NCBI GenBank assembly: GCA_963719085.1
Contig: CAVRAL010000004.1
Location: 384,001 to 448,000 of the forward strand
Direction: 5' to 3'
Length of the DNA: 64,000 bases
Source: a candidate division FCPU426 bacterium
GTDB lineage: Bacteria; Oederibacteriota; Muellerivitia; Muellerivitales; Muellerivitaceae
Shown here: piece after piece, positions 977 through 11,498 of the stretch
Numbering within the stretch: position 1 is the first letter of the stretch
Layout: each line of letters begins with the position of its first letter
Program-made: the position numbers and the translations under genes
Notes under the pieces: model-generated
Database searches by the model: none
The model's input: only the letters and a program-made list of their open reading frames with translations
What the model was told of the DNA's origin: nothing

Positions 977-2200
977 TTAGTTTCCCGAATCCGGATTCAG
1001 ATCGTACTGTTTTTCACCCTCCGCCGTTTTCGTGACTTTCATCGGCGCGGCAGCCGCGACTTGCTCGCGGCTGCCTGGAAGCGCGAAGACCTTCATCCCA
1101 TCCGCCACGTCCACCATTTCCGCCAAGCGGTTTTTAGTCAGAATTTCCAGCCGACGGGCGATTGAGATCATATCCAGACCCATGAAAGCTTGAAGATCGG
1201 AATTGGAAGCCACCGCCCGACCGGATTTGGCCAGGAAATAAAGAAGCTTTTTACAGACCAGGTCCAGTTTTAAATGCTCATTGACCGCCTCAAAAAGATC
1301 TTGGAACTCTACCCGCTCGCCCCGGCGCGTGAACCCCCGGTACATGCCCTCGGAGAGTAAAAAAAGAAACCGCCGGGGGTTTCCATCCGACAGCGCCAAG
1401 CTCAAGGTAAGCGCCTCCGGCTCTAAAAAACTTTCGGCGCCGCCTTTAAACCCCGCCTGTTGAAGCCGCAGGTTGAGCAATTGCCGCAATTGATCCCCGC
1501 TGAAACGCTCGACCAGGACGATATTTTTAAATAATCCCAAAACCGTCGGCTCGGCTCCTTCTTTCACCACCAGCCCCACCTTGGCGTAAAACTCCTCTTG
1601 GAGCGAAATAGCGAAGCCGAAATTGGGAAGTTCCAATAAAGGTTTGAGCTCTTCCAGTAATTGGAGGGTGCGTTCCGAGCGGGTCAAATGCTGAACCCGG
1701 TCTCCCTTGATCTTTTCCAGATCGTCCACAAAAACCAGAAACGGCTTTTTCGAACGAGCGGCGATGGATTTAATCAACGAAAGAAGCGTGTTTTTGGAGA
1801 GGGATTCCTCTTCCACCCGGCGGCTGATTTCTTTCAAATTCAAGCCCGGCACCTTGGGAACCTGAACCAAAATTTCCCTTAAAAGCTCCGAGAGAAAATA
1901 ACGGGCATCGTCCAAAGGAACGCCGATGCTGATGCGGTGGTAGGAAGAAGGAACCTGGTTTTGAAGCACCTGCAGAAGGCTGCTTTTGCCCATGCCCGGC
2001 TCCCCGGCCACGCCCACATTGCCCAGGGAAAAAAGCGCGGAGCTAAGCCGGTCGATCAAGGCTTCCCGGCCCATGAAATAATCCAAATTGTGTTTTTGAA
2101 GCGCCAGGGTGGTAAAGGGATCAACTCTGAGGCCAAAATGCCGATAAGCGGTCGCAGGCCCCTTTGAGACTCGGGAAATTGTTTTTGTCTTTTTCTTCAC
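977..2200 (-). CDS. P-loop AAA+ ATPase with probable C-terminal winged HTH
   Basis: Walker A GEPGMGKS, Walker B LVFVDD, GNPR helix motif, C-terminal HTH-like segment. Confidence 0.75.
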   Translation of the reverse strand: MKKKTKTISRVSKGPATAYRHFGLRVDPFTTLALQKHNLDYFMGREALIDRLSSALFSLGNVGVAGEPGMGKSSLLQVLQNQVPSSYHRISIGVPLDDARYFLSELLREILVQVPKVPGLNLKEISRRVEEESLSKNTLLSLIKSIAARSKKPFLVFVDDLEKIKGDRVQHLTRSERTLQLLEELKPLLELPNFGFAISLQEEFYAKVGLVVKEGAEPTVLGLFKNIVLVERFSGDQLRQLLNLRLQQAGFKGGAESFLEPEALTLSLALSDGNPRRFLFLLSEGMYRGFTRRGERVEFQDLFEAVNEHLKLDLVCKKLLYFLAKSGRAVASNSDLQAFMGLDMISIARRLEILTKNRLAEMVDVADGMKVFALPGSREQVAAAAPMKVTKTAEGEKQYDLNPDSGN

Positions 2201-2218
2201 GTGCCGCTCCTTAAGGAA

Positions 2219-3256
2219 TCAACGTCCCAGGGACATCTTTTCCCCGACCACGGCGAAAGGTTTTTGGAAACCCGATTTGCCCTTGACCTCGACCGGGGGC
2301 AGGGCCTGGAGCTCAAAATATTTTTCCGCGGCCTGGGCCATTTCCTCGTTCACCAATACCTGGCCATGCTTAGCGATGCCGCAAAAGCGGGACGCCAAAT
2401 TAACCGTATCGCCGATCAGGGTAAATTCCATCCGGGCGGCGGATCCCAGGTTGCCCACAATAGCCTCGCCCGCCGTGATGCCGATGCCCAATCCGATGGA
2501 GATAGGCTTGCTGTAACCGACGGCAAAACCCCGGTTGAGGGCCTCGAAACGTTCCTGCATGCCGAGCGCGGTGCGCAGCACCTTCGCGGCGGCCTCGCCC
2601 TCATTGCCATAGGGCCGGTGGAAAAAAGCCAGGATGGCGTCCCCGATGTACTTGTTAATGTCCCCGCCATTTTTTCGGATGACTTCTTCCATGGCCGTGA
2701 ACATCTCATTGAGGATATCCACCGTCTCGTCGGGCCGGATCGTTTCGGTCATTTTGGTAAAACCCCGGACGTCGGAAAAAAGCACGTAAACCCGCTTGAG
2801 CTCGCCGCCCAATTCAGACTTGGCCGCCATCTTGGCGGCCTGGTCGGTGACTTTGGTTCCCACGTATTTTTCCAGGACTTGGTTGGCCTCCAATAATTTG
2901 GCCGAAACCGAGGAATAACCTTGCCCTACCTGGTTCATCAGCTTGATTTGCTGGGACTTAAGCTCCCAAGGCGCCAAACTTTTGAACGGCTGATAATGGA
3001 AGGGAAGGATTTGTTTTTCGAGGAGAAAATTTTGGAACTCCAACAACCATCCGGCTTTTTGGCGCCAGGCGGTAAAAAACCAAAAAAAAGATAAAAAACC
3101 GAAGGTCAAAAGACCCATCGGCACGGGCAGGTTCCCGTCGCTGGACAGCGCCGCCACGGACACCCCCGCCCCAATACTCAAAAGTAAAAGCAGGGAAACG
3201 CGCAGAATCAATTCTTTAACTGATCCTATAAATTTATCTTGGGAGCTGGCTGGCAT
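2219..3256 (-). CDS. Membrane-anchored class III adenylate cyclase
   Basis: Two N-terminal TM helices; FSDVRGFT, KYIGDA (Lys indicates ATP specificity), IGDTVNLASR, VKGK. Confidence 0.9.
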   Translation of the reverse strand: MPASSQDKFIGSVKELILRVSLLLLLSIGAGVSVAALSSDGNLPVPMGLLTFGFLSFFWFFTAWRQKAGWLLEFQNFLLEKQILPFHYQPFKSLAPWELKSQQIKLMNQVGQGYSSVSAKLLEANQVLEKYVGTKVTDQAAKMAAKSELGGELKRVYVLFSDVRGFTKMTETIRPDETVDILNEMFTAMEEVIRKNGGDINKYIGDAILAFFHRPYGNEGEAAAKVLRTALGMQERFEALNRGFAVGYSKPISIGLGIGITAGEAIVGNLGSAARMEFTLIGDTVNLASRFCGIAKHGQVLVNEEMAQAAEKYFELQALPPVEVKGKSGFQKPFAVVGEKMSLGR

Positions 3257-7628: not shown

Positions 7629-8984
7629 ATGAGTTTTTCCGAACAAGACGTCTTGAACGCCCTAAAAGCGGTGAAAGACCCCGATCTGCACCAGGACATC
7701 GTGTCCCTGGGCTTCATCAAAAACATGGTCCTCGACGGGGGCCGGGTGGACTTTGAGATCGAAATGACCACCCCCGCCTGCCCGGTGAAGGACTCCTTCC
7801 AAGCCCAAGCCGTGGCGGAAGTGAAAAAAATAGTGGGCGTGTCGCAGGTGAACGTCAAGATGACCTCCAATGTCAAACAAGCGCCCACCGGCATCAAAAA
7901 CGTCAACATGCCCTCGGTCAAAAACATCATCGCAGTGGCTTCGGGTAAAGGCGGCGTTGGGAAAAGCACCTTGGCCGCCAACCTGTCGCTGGCCCTGGCC
8001 AAATCCGGGGCCAAGGTGGGACTGATGGACGCCGATGTGTACGGCCCCTCGATTCCCCGCATGCTCGGCGTCATCAACCGCCAGCCGGACCAGGATCCGG
8101 TCTCGAAAAAAATGATTCCTTTTGAGAAACACGGCATCAAATTCATGTCCATCGGAATGCTTCAAGAAAGCGACACGGCGCTCATTTGGCGCGGCCCCAT
8201 GGCCAGCAAAATGGTCCAACAATTTTTAGGCGGCGTGGAATGGGGCGAGCTGGATTATCTTTTAATCGACCTGCCCCCGGGCACGGGCGACATTCAATTA
8301 ACCCTCACCCAGTCGGTCCCTTTGGCGGGCGCGGTCATCGTGACGACGCCCCAGGACGTGGCCCGCACGATCACGCAAAAAGGGCTTCGTATGTTTCAAA
8401 CGGTTCACGTGCCCATCATCGGTATCGTGGAAAATATGAGCGGTTTCGTATGCGGCCATTGCGGCGAAGTGACTTATATTTTTAAACAAGGCGGCGGCAA
8501 AAAGATGGCGGAAGAATTGATGGTGCCGTTCCTGGGCGAGGTGCCCTTGGAACCCGTGATCGCCGAGGACGGCGACGCCGGCGTGCCTTCGGTGGCGGCC
8601 CATCCGGAAGCTTTGTCCGGCAAGGCTTACGACAAGATCGCCATGCAAATGGCGGCCCAACTTTCCATCATCAACAACGCCACCACCAACGTCACCAGCC
8701 GGCCGCAGACCGTGGACACCCAAGATCCCCAAGTCACCGTCATCACCTGGGACAACGGCAAGGTCGCGCGTTATCCCAACCGGTATTTACGAAGCCAGTG
8801 CCCCTGCGCCCAATGCGTGAACGAGCTCACCGGGGAACGGATGATCACGCTGGATTCGGTGGACCCCGCCGTCCGGCTGGTGGGCGTGGACCCCGTGGGG
8901 CGCTATGCCCTTCATTTTCAGTGGTCCGACGGCCACGGCACCGGCCTTTATTCCTTTAATACCCTTTTAAAACTCGGCGAATAA
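7629..8984 (+). CDS. apbC: Mrp/ApbC Fe-S cluster carrier ATPase with N-terminal DUF59 and C-terminal DUF971-like domain
   Basis: TTPACP (DUF59), GKGGVGKST, DLPPGTGD, ENMS..CGHC, then CPCAQC...VGRYALHFQWSDGH.TGLY. Confidence 0.88.
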   Translation: MSFSEQDVLNALKAVKDPDLHQDIVSLGFIKNMVLDGGRVDFEIEMTTPACPVKDSFQAQAVAEVKKIVGVSQVNVKMTSNVKQAPTGIKNVNMPSVKNIIAVASGKGGVGKSTLAANLSLALAKSGAKVGLMDADVYGPSIPRMLGVINRQPDQDPVSKKMIPFEKHGIKFMSIGMLQESDTALIWRGPMASKMVQQFLGGVEWGELDYLLIDLPPGTGDIQLTLTQSVPLAGAVIVTTPQDVARTITQKGLRMFQTVHVPIIGIVENMSGFVCGHCGEVTYIFKQGGGKKMAEELMVPFLGEVPLEPVIAEDGDAGVPSVAAHPEALSGKAYDKIAMQMAAQLSIINNATTNVTSRPQTVDTQDPQVTVITWDNGKVARYPNRYLRSQCPCAQCVNELTGERMITLDSVDPAVRLVGVDPVGRYALHFQWSDGHGTGLYSFNTLLKLGE

Positions 8985-9025
8985 AACCCTCCAGCCATGA
9001 CCCTTCGCATTTTCAAGTAGAAGTT

Positions 9026-9044
9026 GATAATGGTTTTCAATATC
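9026..9044. promoter_or_regulatory. Fur-family operator (Fur box)
   Basis: GATAATGGTTTTCAATATC matches 15/19 of GATAATGATAATCATTATC; intergenic, upstream of the ZIP-MCO gene. Confidence 0.75.
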
Positions 9045-9208
9045 ATATGTTTCCCCTGGCTTGGCGATGGGACGTTAAAAACAAAATGATCCACGTCATA
9101 CAGGCTTTTTAAAAACGGCTTTAAGTTAAACGGCTGGCCCTCTCGGACAACGAAGAAAAGGCGGCGCGAATTTAGGGATTTACCGAATCCTCGACGGAAA
9201 GGTTTTCC

Positions 9209-11014
9209 ATGCATTTCCCCATGCTTTTAGTTTTTGGATTTATCGCCGGCGGCACCATTTTGATCGGATTGCCCATCGGACGCTTTAAAGGCTTTAACCC
9301 CACCCTGCGGGCCTCCCTGAGCATGTTCGCGGCGGGCATCCTGGTTTTTTTATTGGTGGAAATCATGGGAGGCGCCTGCGGCCAAACCGCTTCCGCGCTT
9401 CGGGACTTCACCGCCAACCCGGTCTCCGCGCTTTTATTGGTTCTGCTCCTCGTCATCGGTTTTTTCTTGGGCTTCGTGGGGCTGGTGAGCGTCGAGCAAA
9501 AACTAATCCGTTCCGCCGATCCCCTGAACCCCCAAAACCTGTCCCTGATGATCGCCATCGGCATTGGCCTTCATAACTTAAGCGAAGGGCTCGCCATCGG
9601 CCAAGCCTTTGCCCAAGGCATGAACGGCCTGACGGTAAGCCTCATCCTGGGTTTCGCCTTGCACAACGCCACCGAAGGCTTCGGCATCATGGGCCCCGTG
9701 GTTCGGGCCGGACAAACGGTTTCTTGGGGCCGTATTCTGCTTTTGGCCGCCATTGGCGGCGGCCCGACCTTTGTGGGAACCCTCTTGGGCAGCCTTTGGA
9801 CTTCGCCGTTCCTTTCCGTGCTGGTTTTGGCCATGGCCGGCGGCGCCTTGCTCTATGTATTGAAGGAACTATTGAACGGAGCCCGCCGGGAAACGGCCCA
9901 GGTGCTGGTCATGACCACCTTGGTTTTTGGTTTCACCATCGGCTGGGGCACCGAAGTCGTGGCGGACATTTCCCAAAGCTCACAAACCGCCGTGGAAGCC
10001 GACGGGGATAAAATAGCCTCTTCCGCCTCGGTTTCTGGGCCCGCCCTCAGCGCCGCCGAAGCCGCCGCCCAAGACCAAACCTCCAACGCCATGCTCCACG
10101 AGCAAGCCATGGCGCCTCAAACGCTTTCCGATGGAACTAAGGAATACGATTTGACCGCCTCGGCTTTTCCCTGGGAAGTTTATCCGGGCGTGAGGGTCAT
10201 GGCTTGGGGATACAACGGCGAAGTCCCGGGCCCCTTGCTTCGGTGGAAAGTCGGCGACAAGGTTAAGATTGTGGTGAAGAATAATCTTCCCCAAGCCACC
10301 ACGGTTCATTGGCACGGCCTGGCGGTTCCCAACGCCCAAGACGGCGTGCCCGGCATTACCCAAAAGGCTATCCCGCCTGGCGGCCAATATGTCTATTCCT
10401 TTAAAGTCACGCCCCAAATGGTCGGCACCCATCTTTATCACACCCACGTCAACGACGATTTCCAGATGGATAAAGGACTGCATGGAGTCCTCCTCGTGGA
10501 CCCGGCCGCGGGTGCCAAGCCCGCCGTTGACGCTTTATACGAGATCGCCTCTTTCAAAATCGGCGGTTCGGACAATGAAAATGTCTTTACCTTGGACGGC
10601 AAGGCTTGCCCCGAAGCCCCGGCCCTGCGGGTTTCCAAAGGCTCCCTCGTTCACTTGCGATTGGTGAACGCCAGCGCCGAAGAATCGCACGTCATGCACC
10701 TGCATGGCTACAGCTTTCAAATCGTGGCCTTGGACGGAAACCCCTTGGCCCGTCCCATCGTGGCCAACACGGTTCACTTGGCGCCGTCCCAAACCGCCGA
10801 TGTGGAATTCATCGCCAACAATCCCGGCATCTGGATGTTCCATTGCCACATCCTAGATCACTTAATCAATCCCGGCCCCGCCGGAGACGGGTCCGAGACT
10901 GAAATCGCCGATATGGGGGGGCTGATGACCTTCGTGGAAGTGGTTGATTGGAAAAATCCGAAGTCAGATTATTTGGCCGCCGGCGCCGTCACAAGCGAAA
11001 GCATCTGCCGCTAG
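9209..11014 (+). CDS. Fusion of ZIP-family metal permease and two-domain multicopper oxidase
   Basis: N-half hydrophobic with LHNLSEG and LHNATEG; C-half with HWHG, YHTH, HVMHLHG, HCHILDH. Confidence 0.88.
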   Translation: MHFPMLLVFGFIAGGTILIGLPIGRFKGFNPTLRASLSMFAAGILVFLLVEIMGGACGQTASALRDFTANPVSALLLVLLLVIGFFLGFVGLVSVEQKLIRSADPLNPQNLSLMIAIGIGLHNLSEGLAIGQAFAQGMNGLTVSLILGFALHNATEGFGIMGPVVRAGQTVSWGRILLLAAIGGGPTFVGTLLGSLWTSPFLSVLVLAMAGGALLYVLKELLNGARRETAQVLVMTTLVFGFTIGWGTEVVADISQSSQTAVEADGDKIASSASVSGPALSAAEAAAQDQTSNAMLHEQAMAPQTLSDGTKEYDLTASAFPWEVYPGVRVMAWGYNGEVPGPLLRWKVGDKVKIVVKNNLPQATTVHWHGLAVPNAQDGVPGITQKAIPPGGQYVYSFKVTPQMVGTHLYHTHVNDDFQMDKGLHGVLLVDPAAGAKPAVDALYEIASFKIGGSDNENVFTLDGKACPEAPALRVSKGSLVHLRLVNASAEESHVMHLHGYSFQIVALDGNPLARPIVANTVHLAPSQTADVEFIANNPGIWMFHCHILDHLINPGPAGDGSETEIADMGGLMTFVEVVDWKNPKSDYLAAGAVTSESICR

Positions 11015-11294
11015 GACTAACGCCGCTAGCGGGCCGCCAGAACATTAAATAGCGTCAATGCGGCCCGCTACCCCTAAAATTCGGCAAGCATTTGGGGATT
11101 ACCTTGAATTTTTTTGCCCAATAATTTAGCCCCCCTTTAAATTTGTGTCGAAACCAGGGCACTAAAAACCCCGCAATCCGCCGGGTTACTCTTTTACCCT
11201 GATTTAACAATTCCCACCGCTTCAAGCGTCCCGCCACGGCGTATAGTTTTTATATCAATTCAAGTTCAGCGCAAGAGGCCGAAAGAGGTGCGAG

Positions 11295-11498
11295 ATGTCC
11301 ACCACTTTGAAAGCTTCACTCATCCGGAAAGCCATCCGGGACTACAACTACAAATATGACGCCGTTTCGGGTTTAAAAGAACTGATGTGGCGATGCTCCA
11401 AATGCGGTGAGTTGGTGCATCGAAAGGATGGGTTGCCGGAAAAATGCCCCTCCTGCGGGGCTTCCCGGCTTGAGTTTTCGCTGGTCGAAGAAGACTAG
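11295..11498 (+). CDS. Small rubredoxin-like/zinc-ribbon protein
   Basis: WRCSKCG...PEKCPSCG; GAGGTG RBS. Confidence 0.75.
   Translation: MSTTLKASLIRKAIRDYNYKYDAVSGLKELMWRCSKCGELVHRKDGLPEKCPSCGASRLEFSLVEED

Follow-up and report, generated by a model that had tools for sequence, protein, structure and literature searches.

We analysed a window of 64,000 nucleotides from a candidate division FCPU426 bacterium (contig CAVRAL010000004.1, positions 384,001 to 448,000); all positions given without a locus name refer to this window. A single open reading frame (ORF) on the forward strand encodes a protein of 601 residues, in which an eight-helix ZIP permease (residues 1–254) is joined through a flexible linker rich in Ala and Ser to a complete two-domain multicopper oxidase (2dMCO). 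A preliminary description, made from the letters alone, had proposed a single-chain oxidase-permease system. The features of the gene are:

9004..9051, forward strand: two overlapping sigma-70-like promoter candidates from a consensus scan, TTCGCA-16-GATAAT and TTGATA-16-TATGTT
9026..9044, no strand assigned: putative Fur-type operator GATAATGGTTTTCAATATC, palindromic, matching the Fur consensus at 15/19 positions on the forward and 16/19 on the reverse strand
9209..11014, forward strand: ZIP-2dMCO fusion gene, 601 codons plus stop, a single ORF
9209..9970, forward strand: ZIP permease domain (residues 1–254), from Pfam Zip and the AlphaFold2 helices
9572..9589, forward strand: metal-site motif HNLSEG of transmembrane helix 4 (TM4; residues 122–127, with H122, N123 and E126), aligned to H-N-x-x-E of BbZIP
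9662..9679, forward strand: metal-site motif HNATEG of TM5 (residues 152–157, with H152, N153 and E156), aligned to Q-D-x-x-E of BbZIP
9971..10123, forward strand: linker (residues 255–305), a low-confidence Ala/Ser stretch with a conserved A-D-G-D, then a helix (282–296)
10124..10513, forward strand: cupredoxin domain 1 (residues 306–435; Pfam Cu-oxidase_3) with HWH (367–369) and HTH (411–413), no type-1 Cys
10514..10948, forward strand: cupredoxin domain 2 (residues 436–580; Pfam Cu-oxidase_2) with H494, HLH (497–499), HCH (545–547) and H551
10862..10912, forward strand: acidic type-1 loop insert (residues 552–568, LINPGPAGDGSETEIAD), read from the sequence
10949..11011, forward strand: C-terminal tail (residues 581–601), last Cys being Cys600, read from the sequence

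The open frame around the gene comprises 612 codons, and its 601-codon ORF contains no internal stop. Pfam assigns Zip to residues 109–242 (39.7 bits, cut-off 35.1), Cu-oxidase_3 to 327–433 (132 bits) and Cu-oxidase_2 to 452–552 (93.8 bits). All NCBIfam matches were below threshold: CopA with 143 bits (cut-off 479), CueO with 103 bits (cut-off 525) and, weakly, ZupT with 43.8 bits. An AlphaFold2 model of the full protein, calculated from a 36-sequence alignment, reached a mean predicted local distance difference test score (pLDDT) of 85.6 and a predicted template modelling score (pTM) of 0.57. Along the chain the model shows eight helices up to residue 254, a low-confidence stretch (254–274), a confident helix (282–296) and two β-domains. 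The combination of a modest pTM with a high pLDDT fits two rigid bodies joined by a flexible tether.

A joining of two separate genes by a sequencing or assembly error has a practically negligible probability. The fusion of ZIP and Cu-oxidase domains recurs in the same uninterrupted frame in 84 further clusters at 90% identity, from isolates as well as metagenomes, and these include the complete genomes of Kyrpidia and Aneurinibacillus (according to their source names). In addition, a metagenome contig from the public runs covers positions 9896–10625 including the linker and is identical to the window, showing neither a stop nor a frameshift; it stems from a soil run that may be the source sample itself, so it is not an independent confirmation. 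Three public DNA runs, all from one study, carry the stretch, with coverage in pieces only, and no RNA run carrying it is listed among the public runs.

The protein is a member of the ZIP family (PF02535): its score exceeds the cut-off of the family model, the eight helices are present (residues 3–25, 31–65, 71–99, 108–135, 139–166, 173–196, 200–223 and 231–254 in the AlphaFold2 model) and so are the motifs of the binuclear metal site. The metal-site residues of TM4 and TM5 are retained in 35–36 of 36 fused homologues. A phmmer search of the PDB with the sequence of the ZIP domain alone gave no match and a profile was needed; built from the domain and 35 stand-alone relatives, it matched BbZIP across all eight helices (E = 1.4e-12). 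The model of residues 2–252 superimposes on BbZIP (PDB entry 7z6m) with a VIA-align Z-score of 15.3 for 231 aligned residues. The domain thus resembles BbZIP and ZupT in its eight helices and in the metal-site motifs H-N-x-x-E of TM4 and x-x-x-x-E of TM5. It differs from BbZIP in sequence (only ~13% identity) and in having H-N in TM5 in place of Q-D, and from both in its short cytoplasmic loop 3–4 and in belonging to a small subfamily that is repeatedly fused to outside redox domains. A second ZIP of the same genome (C4:1089958, 261 amino acids) has different motifs and lies outside this subfamily.

Loops 1–2, 3–4, 5–6 and 7–8 of the ZIP domain together contain seven Lys and Arg residues, against one in the other, outer loops. 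This pattern and the eight-helix alignment with BbZIP place both termini outside, so that the C-terminal oxidase is predicted to be extracytoplasmic, as the preliminary description had supposed.

The connection between the two halves is rich in small residues (14 Ala and 9 Ser among the 54 residues 252–305). Its pLDDT is below 50 for residues 254–274 and above 90 for the helix 282–296. Asp265, Gly266 and Asp267 are retained in 35–36 of 36 fused homologues, and the D-G-D motif is also present in relatives that consist of the multicopper oxidase (MCO) anchored by a single helix. At the other end of the protein, a near-terminal cysteine like Cys600 occurs in close fused and MCO-only relatives; the tail is missing from many homologues.

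The C-terminal half is a predicted member of the two-domain multicopper oxidases. Eight histidines are available for the trinuclear centre, together with one His-Cys-His type-1 site (H494, C546 and H551). The type-1 site is confined to domain 2, which also carries half of the trinuclear ligands; the HTH motif of domain 1 is not accompanied by a cysteine. We take this arrangement to be type B in the scheme of Nakamura and Go. In a VIA-align comparison residues 282–590 gave Z-scores of 33.1 with PDB entry 3gdc and 31.3 with 2zwn, and Foldseek agrees with a 2dMCO fold for this half (TM-score 0.75–0.83 on the target). Two-domain multicopper oxidases are trimers whose trinuclear copper centre is built between subunits. 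The solved relatives are deposited with three or six chains per entry, which is only suggestive of a trimer. With these structures (3gdc, 2zwn and 3g5w; SLAC type) the oxidase shares the fold and the full ligand set, but here it is tethered to the membrane via a transporter and carries an insert of 17 residues in the type-1 loop. This insert lies between H551 and the invariant segment M569-G-G-L572 and contains four acidic residues; N554 and P555 are invariant in the family and the pLDDT of the block is 72–75.

All copper ligands are retained in 36 of 36 fused homologues with the exception of H545, and together with the conservation of the ZIP ligands this indicates that both halves are under selection. 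H545, the first histidine of HCH and a ligand of the trinuclear centre, is a glutamine in 7 of the 36. The cuprous oxidases CueO and CopA have three cupredoxin domains and a Met-rich Cu(I) segment; here, by contrast, there are two domains, and the 8 Met among the 301 residues of the oxidase part nowhere form a Met-rich run. Given the low Met content and the acidic type-1 loop, a hard cation would fit better as substrate than Cu(I). The uninterrupted ORF, both ZIP motifs, the Ala/Ser linker, the full set of copper ligands, the restriction of type-1 copper to domain 2 and the acidic insertion had all been read from the letters in the preliminary description, and each of these was located again in our analysis. 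The same holds for its Fur box with 15 of 19 matches about 165 bp upstream.

This Fur-like box ends 165 nt before the ATG of the fusion gene. It was scored against the 19-nt consensus of E. coli. In the genome (3.04 Mb) only three places reach at least 16/19 on either strand, one of them a GAT repeat, and the operator at 9026–9044 ranks second among the Fur-type places. A single base separates it from the best site (C4:231282), which lies outside the window. A promoter scan of positions 8800–11400 found three promoter-like sites where 1.1 are expected, and both candidates at 9004..9051 overlap the box. The genome encodes one Fur-like regulator (C1:1037839, below the equivalog cut-offs) and one PerR-like regulator beside a peroxiredoxin gene. 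As in a Fur regulon, a consensus-matching operator at a putative promoter is therefore found together with a Fur-like gene in the genome; judged from the sequence, the operator may serve Fur, but it could also serve the PerR-like or a manganese-responsive regulator.

The box is conserved in orthologous loci while its flanks diverge. An orthologue from another genus (72% identity, likewise downstream of a Mrp/NUBPL-DUF971 gene) retains it 65 nt upstream of the gene start, although the rest of the spacer has diverged, and eight aligned related loci share the core TTGAtAATGrTTTTCAATAyCAT with differing flanks. MCO-only paralogues of relatives carry no such box (at most 13/19 in seven loci), which suggests that iron-type control travels with the ZIP domain. 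No Rfam family was detected in the leader RNA at E-values up to 1 (positions 8900–9300), and the 164-nt leader folds no better than shuffled sequences (z = 0.44). An ORF of 88 codons on the reverse strand (8948–9214) spans the whole spacer including the operator and probably does not represent a gene. The top-ranking Fur-type site in the genome (17/19, with a pair of overlapping boxes; C4:226700–231310, locus L179) lies ahead of an operon with genes for DUF6662, cytochrome c, DUF6662, FMN_bind, ApbE and a cytochrome-b561-like membrane protein, possibly an iron-regulated outer redox system.

Upstream of the fusion gene lies a gene for a Mrp/NUBPL Fe-S carrier ATPase fused to DUF971 (GBBH-like_N; 7629–8984). 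Downstream, an ORF for a 67-residue rubredoxin-like zinc ribbon (DUF7130; 11295–11498) is located between the fusion gene and DsbD. We compared this slot in 13 further loci (L180–L192) with a Mrp protein 78–85% identical; the Pfam confirmation of DsbD applies to the window only. Mrp is followed by:

L181, L183 and L187: the same operator (15–17/19), a cytochrome c-FTR1 protein of 648–666 residues and DsbD; this is the position of the ZIP-MCO gene in the window
L191: a cytochrome c-FTR1 gene, with no box of at least 14/19
L186: a Nramp gene (best match MntH) with a 14/19 box at its start
L180: the box and, up to the contig end, the first 15 codons of a ZIP-MCO-like gene, 11 of them identical
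L192: the box
L182: a transposase
L184 and L190: DsbD directly
L185 and L189: other genes
L188: the contig end

In relatives, the same box in the same slot thus precedes the type of permease found in the known oxidase-permease systems, in support of the proposal made for the fusion. The cytochrome c-FTR1 permeases resemble the fusion protein in occupying the Mrp-DsbD slot, in the operator (three of four cases) and in combining an outside redox domain and a permease in a single chain, but they contain haem c in place of four coppers and a permease of another fold. Their genes encode 648–669 residues (L181:5512–7503, L183:5227–7173, L187:5493–7493 and L191:6024–8033). The cytochrome c part matches 'cytochrome 579' weakly, with 32.5 bits, far below the cut-off.

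To describe the spread of the fusion we used the query and its 120 best clusters at 90% identity. Among these 121 clusters, 85 have the order ZIP-MCO, 10 the reverse order MCO-ZIP with a signal peptide, and 26 are MCO-only forms anchored by a single N-terminal helix. By source name, the carriers include Kyrpidia, Aneurinibacillus soli, Alicyclobacillus, Methylacidithermus, Actinoallomurus and, on a plasmid, Deinococcus as well as metagenome-assembled genomes of Proteobacteria and Eremiobacterota, several phyla overall. A tree of the oxidase domain (quick IQ-TREE run, midpoint root; a careful search is unfinished) places MCO-ZIP in one clade, separate from ZIP-MCO (approximate likelihood ratio test support 96), and the MCO-only forms within the ZIP-MCO clade, where well-supported branches force at least three changes. 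Accordingly, there were at least two origins of the fusion, with opposite domain orders, and several losses of ZIP. A genome of the same phylum (G035) contains an unfused, overlapping 2dMCO-ZIP gene pair, after which come an unassigned gene and one for Cupredoxin_1. The MCO-ZIP genes of Vulcanimicrobiota are flanked by genes for an ECF sigma factor, a zf-HC2 anti-sigma factor and a MucB/RseB-like protein, which are not informative on the metal. A search of the protein Atlas returned one MCO cluster only. In four loci from three phyla a Phosphoesterase-family (PF04185) gene adjoins an anchored or fused MCO gene (L003:6444–7712, L004:5797–7425, L005:5765–7381 and L211:2547–3584); the Paenibacillus copy lies upstream of two anchored 2dMCO genes in tandem.

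The nesting of 26 MCO-only clusters among the fused forms could mean that the ZIP domain is an accessory. The oxidase would then act on a phenolic compound, a siderophore or another organic reductant, and ZIP would be an anchor or a copper route from the cytoplasm to an oxidase exported unfolded. The gene is the sole MCO of the genome, and the oxidase follows a polytopic membrane domain with no Tat signal, so copper must be acquired outside. We regard such a role as very unlikely, since the ZIP metal site is retained in nearly all fused proteins, the fusion arose in both orders, unfused coupled pairs exist, four further types of redox domain are found fused to this ZIP subfamily, and the Fur-type box is missing from the MCO-only paralogues.

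The partners of this ZIP subfamily bear on the oxidase-permease interpretation. Searching 1.84 billion representatives with the ZIP domain (phmmer) gave 1839 proteins at E ≤ 0.001 and 83 at E ≤ 1e-30. Of the 150 best members, 20 are at least 340 residues long, and 14 of these 20 carry an outside redox domain: 2dMCO in four, Cupredoxin_1 in six (two of them weak), Cupredoxin_1 plus a DyP peroxidase in one, cytochrome c in two and redoxin in one. The Pfam scan covered 15 of the 20 and four others; P0078 and P0107 were already known as ZIP-MCO. The non-MCO fusions include P0160, P0168, P0174, P0164, P0128, P0139 and P0131. P0124 and P0134 have an extra helical domain of ~240 residues with no family assigned after a cupredoxin-like stretch; for the C-terminal 243 residues of P0124 (ZIP-cupredoxin) only a weak ROXA-like match was found.

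MCOs, cupredoxins and DyP peroxidases are partners of FTR1/EfeU permeases in Fet3p/Ftr1p, EfeUOB and FtrABCD (the MCO being Fet3p, the cupredoxin EfeO/FtrB and the DyP peroxidase EfeB). The ZIP subfamily therefore shares these partner types, and a cytochrome c partner is seen in the cytochrome c-FTR1 fusions of the relatives. These fusions lend further support to the proposed oxidase-permease system. Around stand-alone ZIP relatives (36–46% identity; 51 loci, with crude ORF calling that gave a wrong-strand frame in ~8) there was no MCO, neither by tblastn (E 1e-5, up to 8 kb) nor by Pfam in the ORFs directly before and after (0 of 51 each). Conversely, none of 26 MCO-only loci contained a ZIP gene.

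We conclude that the fusion is real and conserved, and that it represents an uncharacterised variation on the oxidase-permease theme. Full-text literature searches, which did not cover supplements, returned no description or biochemical study of a ZIP-MCO fusion; the preliminary description had likewise known of no characterised example. It had left iron, manganese and copper as candidate metals. All three are still candidates, and judged from the genes and their operators iron is the likeliest, being favoured by the operator and by the interchange with FTR1. On the strength of the replacement by FTR1, the Fur box and the types of partner domain, we tentatively propose (with a probability of roughly 45%) that the gene encodes a Fur-controlled single-chain oxidase-permease for iron, in which ZIP takes the place of FTR1 and uptake is coupled to oxidation.

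The mechanism could be as follows. Under iron shortage the gene would be derepressed through its Fur-type operator. The oxidase domains would assemble as trimers and thereby build the trinuclear copper centre between subunits. At the acidic type-1 loop, Fe(II) would be oxidised in one-electron steps, and the electrons would pass to O2. The oxidised metal would then be handed to the adjacent ZIP pore, and oxidation would give selectivity and drive to the uptake, following the coupling logic of Fet3p for Ftr1p and of EfeO/EfeB for EfeU. ZIP may carry Fe(III), or the oxidase may instead edit what reaches a divalent-ion pore.

Several points weigh against this proposal. ZIPs are divalent-ion carriers and we know of no precedent for the transport of Fe(III) by a ZIP. 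To oxidise Fe(II) ahead of a pore for Fe(II) would be counter-productive if the pore did not take the product. The trimers of 2dMCOs would also have to be reconciled with the dimer described for BbZIP. The MCO-only forms inside the fused clade imply that the oxidase apparently can work without ZIP. Fused genes of five loci (G013, L002, Alicyclobacillus, Deinococcales and the Deinococcus plasmid) have no box better than 12/19. In family f1 (25 genomes) the fusion occurs in four genomes, FTR1 frames of ~650–680 residues in eight and both in none, a distribution compatible with substitution, but the non-overlap is not significant, as ~1.3 genomes with both are expected by chance among these 25 related genomes.

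Further objections concern the metal. Fur-type control fits manganese import too, and in L186 a Nramp gene stands under the same operator. The regulator beside the unfused pair of G035 has MntR as its best NCBIfam match (189 bits, below the cut-off). It has Asp and Glu at two signature positions, which in DtxR we take to be Met10 and Cys102. Including this one, six DtxR-family neighbours of stand-alone ZIPs and of the G035 pair were scored, four matching best as MntR-type and two as DtxR-type, all below the cut-offs. These observations would suit a manganese importer, in which ZIP brings in Mn(II) under iron or manganese scarcity and the oxidase guards the pore by oxidising Fe(II) and perhaps Cu(I); alternatively, the oxidase might act on manganese itself. 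A divergent DtxR/MntR-family regulator adjoins 11 of the 51 stand-alone ZIP relatives, and a VIT1 gene and a CDF gene adjoin two of them. We nevertheless consider manganese import unlikely: the slot with this operator holds the FTR1-type iron permease more often than Nramp (three loci against one), no role in manganese import is known for DyP, cupredoxin or cytochrome c partners, the sub-threshold regulator matches include two that lean towards DtxR, and the guard idea is pure inference.

Other neighbourhoods that count against iron point to copper. The fused gene of the Deinococcus plasmid stands in a row CDF-ArsR-hypothetical-ZIP-MCO within a copper/heavy-metal island. MCO relatives of ~40% identity adjoin YtkA/FixH-like genes (eight loci) or a copper-ATPase-like gene (L113), in both cases downstream in Chloroflexi relatives, or copC-copD; the neighbour scan of the Chloroflexi relatives covered 41 of 60 neighbour ORFs. 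On the Afipia carboxidovorans plasmid pOC167 (L178, 5993–7864) a 2dMCO of ~38% identity is fused to a DUF4396 membrane domain and followed by copC, copD and a DUF411 gene, and several other plasmid matches are annotated as similar DUF4396-2dMCO fusions.

With copper as substrate, Cu(I) would be oxidised to Cu(II) outside the cell and then imported by ZIP, for which the divalent product would be suited, or the protein would serve copper tolerance as CueO and CopA do. In Nitrososphaera viennensis, copper limitation induces MCO1 as well as the ZIP permease gene next to it, and the authors of that study propose Cu(I) oxidation followed by ZIP uptake, stated there as untested (PMC7785015). This system of ammonia-oxidising archaea resembles the fusion in linking a two-domain MCO to a ZIP-family permease with an oxidise-then-import logic, but it consists of separate genes, responds to copper limitation and has copper as the proposed substrate, whereas here both parts are fused under a Fur-type box (PMC7785015). 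A copper function of the fusion nevertheless appears decidedly unlikely. Its control site is of the Fur type and shared with FTR1 and Nramp genes, no copper gene was found within 1–25 kb of the window, the oxidase lacks the Met-rich Cu(I)-binding segment, and the relatives in a copper context are only ~40% identical and have no ZIP. Moreover, none of the four thaumarchaeal ZIP loci that were fetched had an MCO neighbour.

Compared with the known iron systems, the proposed iron oxidase-permease would share with Fet3p/Ftr1p, EfeUOB and FtrABCD an outside oxidising partner, a membrane permease and iron-responsive control, the coupling here being covalent. By VIA-align, Fet3p matched residues 309–596 with a Z-score of 21.3 and Brucella FtrB matched domain 1 with 9.7. 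Fet3p is, however, a three-domain oxidase, in contrast to the presumably trimeric two-domain oxidase here, and the permease of Fet3p/Ftr1p and EfeUOB is FTR1 or EfeU with REXXE motifs in place of ZIP. No FTR1 match was found in the fusion protein or in the source genome. Without an FTR1/EfeU permease with REXXE, the fusion is not a member of the FTR1-based systems and at most an analogue. Ferroportin with hephaestin or ceruloplasmin, as covered in a 2025 review on ferroxidase-permease systems, likewise pairs a divalent-iron carrier with an outside MCO ferroxidase, but works in iron export (PMC11817551). For the fusion, import is suggested by where the operator lies and by the uptake permeases that take its place in relatives. 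In the review, ZIP8 and ZIP14 appear solely as carriers of Fe(II) (PMC11817551).

A broader reading, possible but doubtful, is that the ZIP subfamily forms a second, so far unrecognised class of redox-coupled metal permeases, a ZIP counterpart of FTR1, which would take up iron only after an oxidant has acted at the pore mouth. This one-electron oxidant, whether attached or adjacent, would be a 2dMCO, a cupredoxin, a DyP peroxidase or a cytochrome c. ZIPs, including human SLC39, are treated as simple divalent-ion carriers without a redox partner. With a conserved family of ZIPs welded to an oxidase, the ferroxidase-permease principle would apply to a second transporter fold as well; the case for this rests on the two independent fusion orders, the other redox partners and the interchange with cytochrome c-FTR1 under one operator. 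If it is true, ZIPs could be genuine ferroxidase partners and candidates for the permease of animal MCO ferroxidases. An example is Mco4 of Drosophila, whose permease partner is stated to be unknown (PMC12218971). Should the oxidase instead be a selectivity guard for manganese or copper, the mechanism would be new as well. In either case the fusion offers a single-gene system, expressible and mutable, for asking how oxidation couples to transport, and cultured carriers exist in Kyrpidia, Aneurinibacillus soli, Alicyclobacillus and a Deinococcus plasmid.

Elsewhere in the window, a STAND/AAA_16 NTPase gene on the reverse strand (980–3256) adjoins a gene with an adenylate/guanylate cyclase domain.

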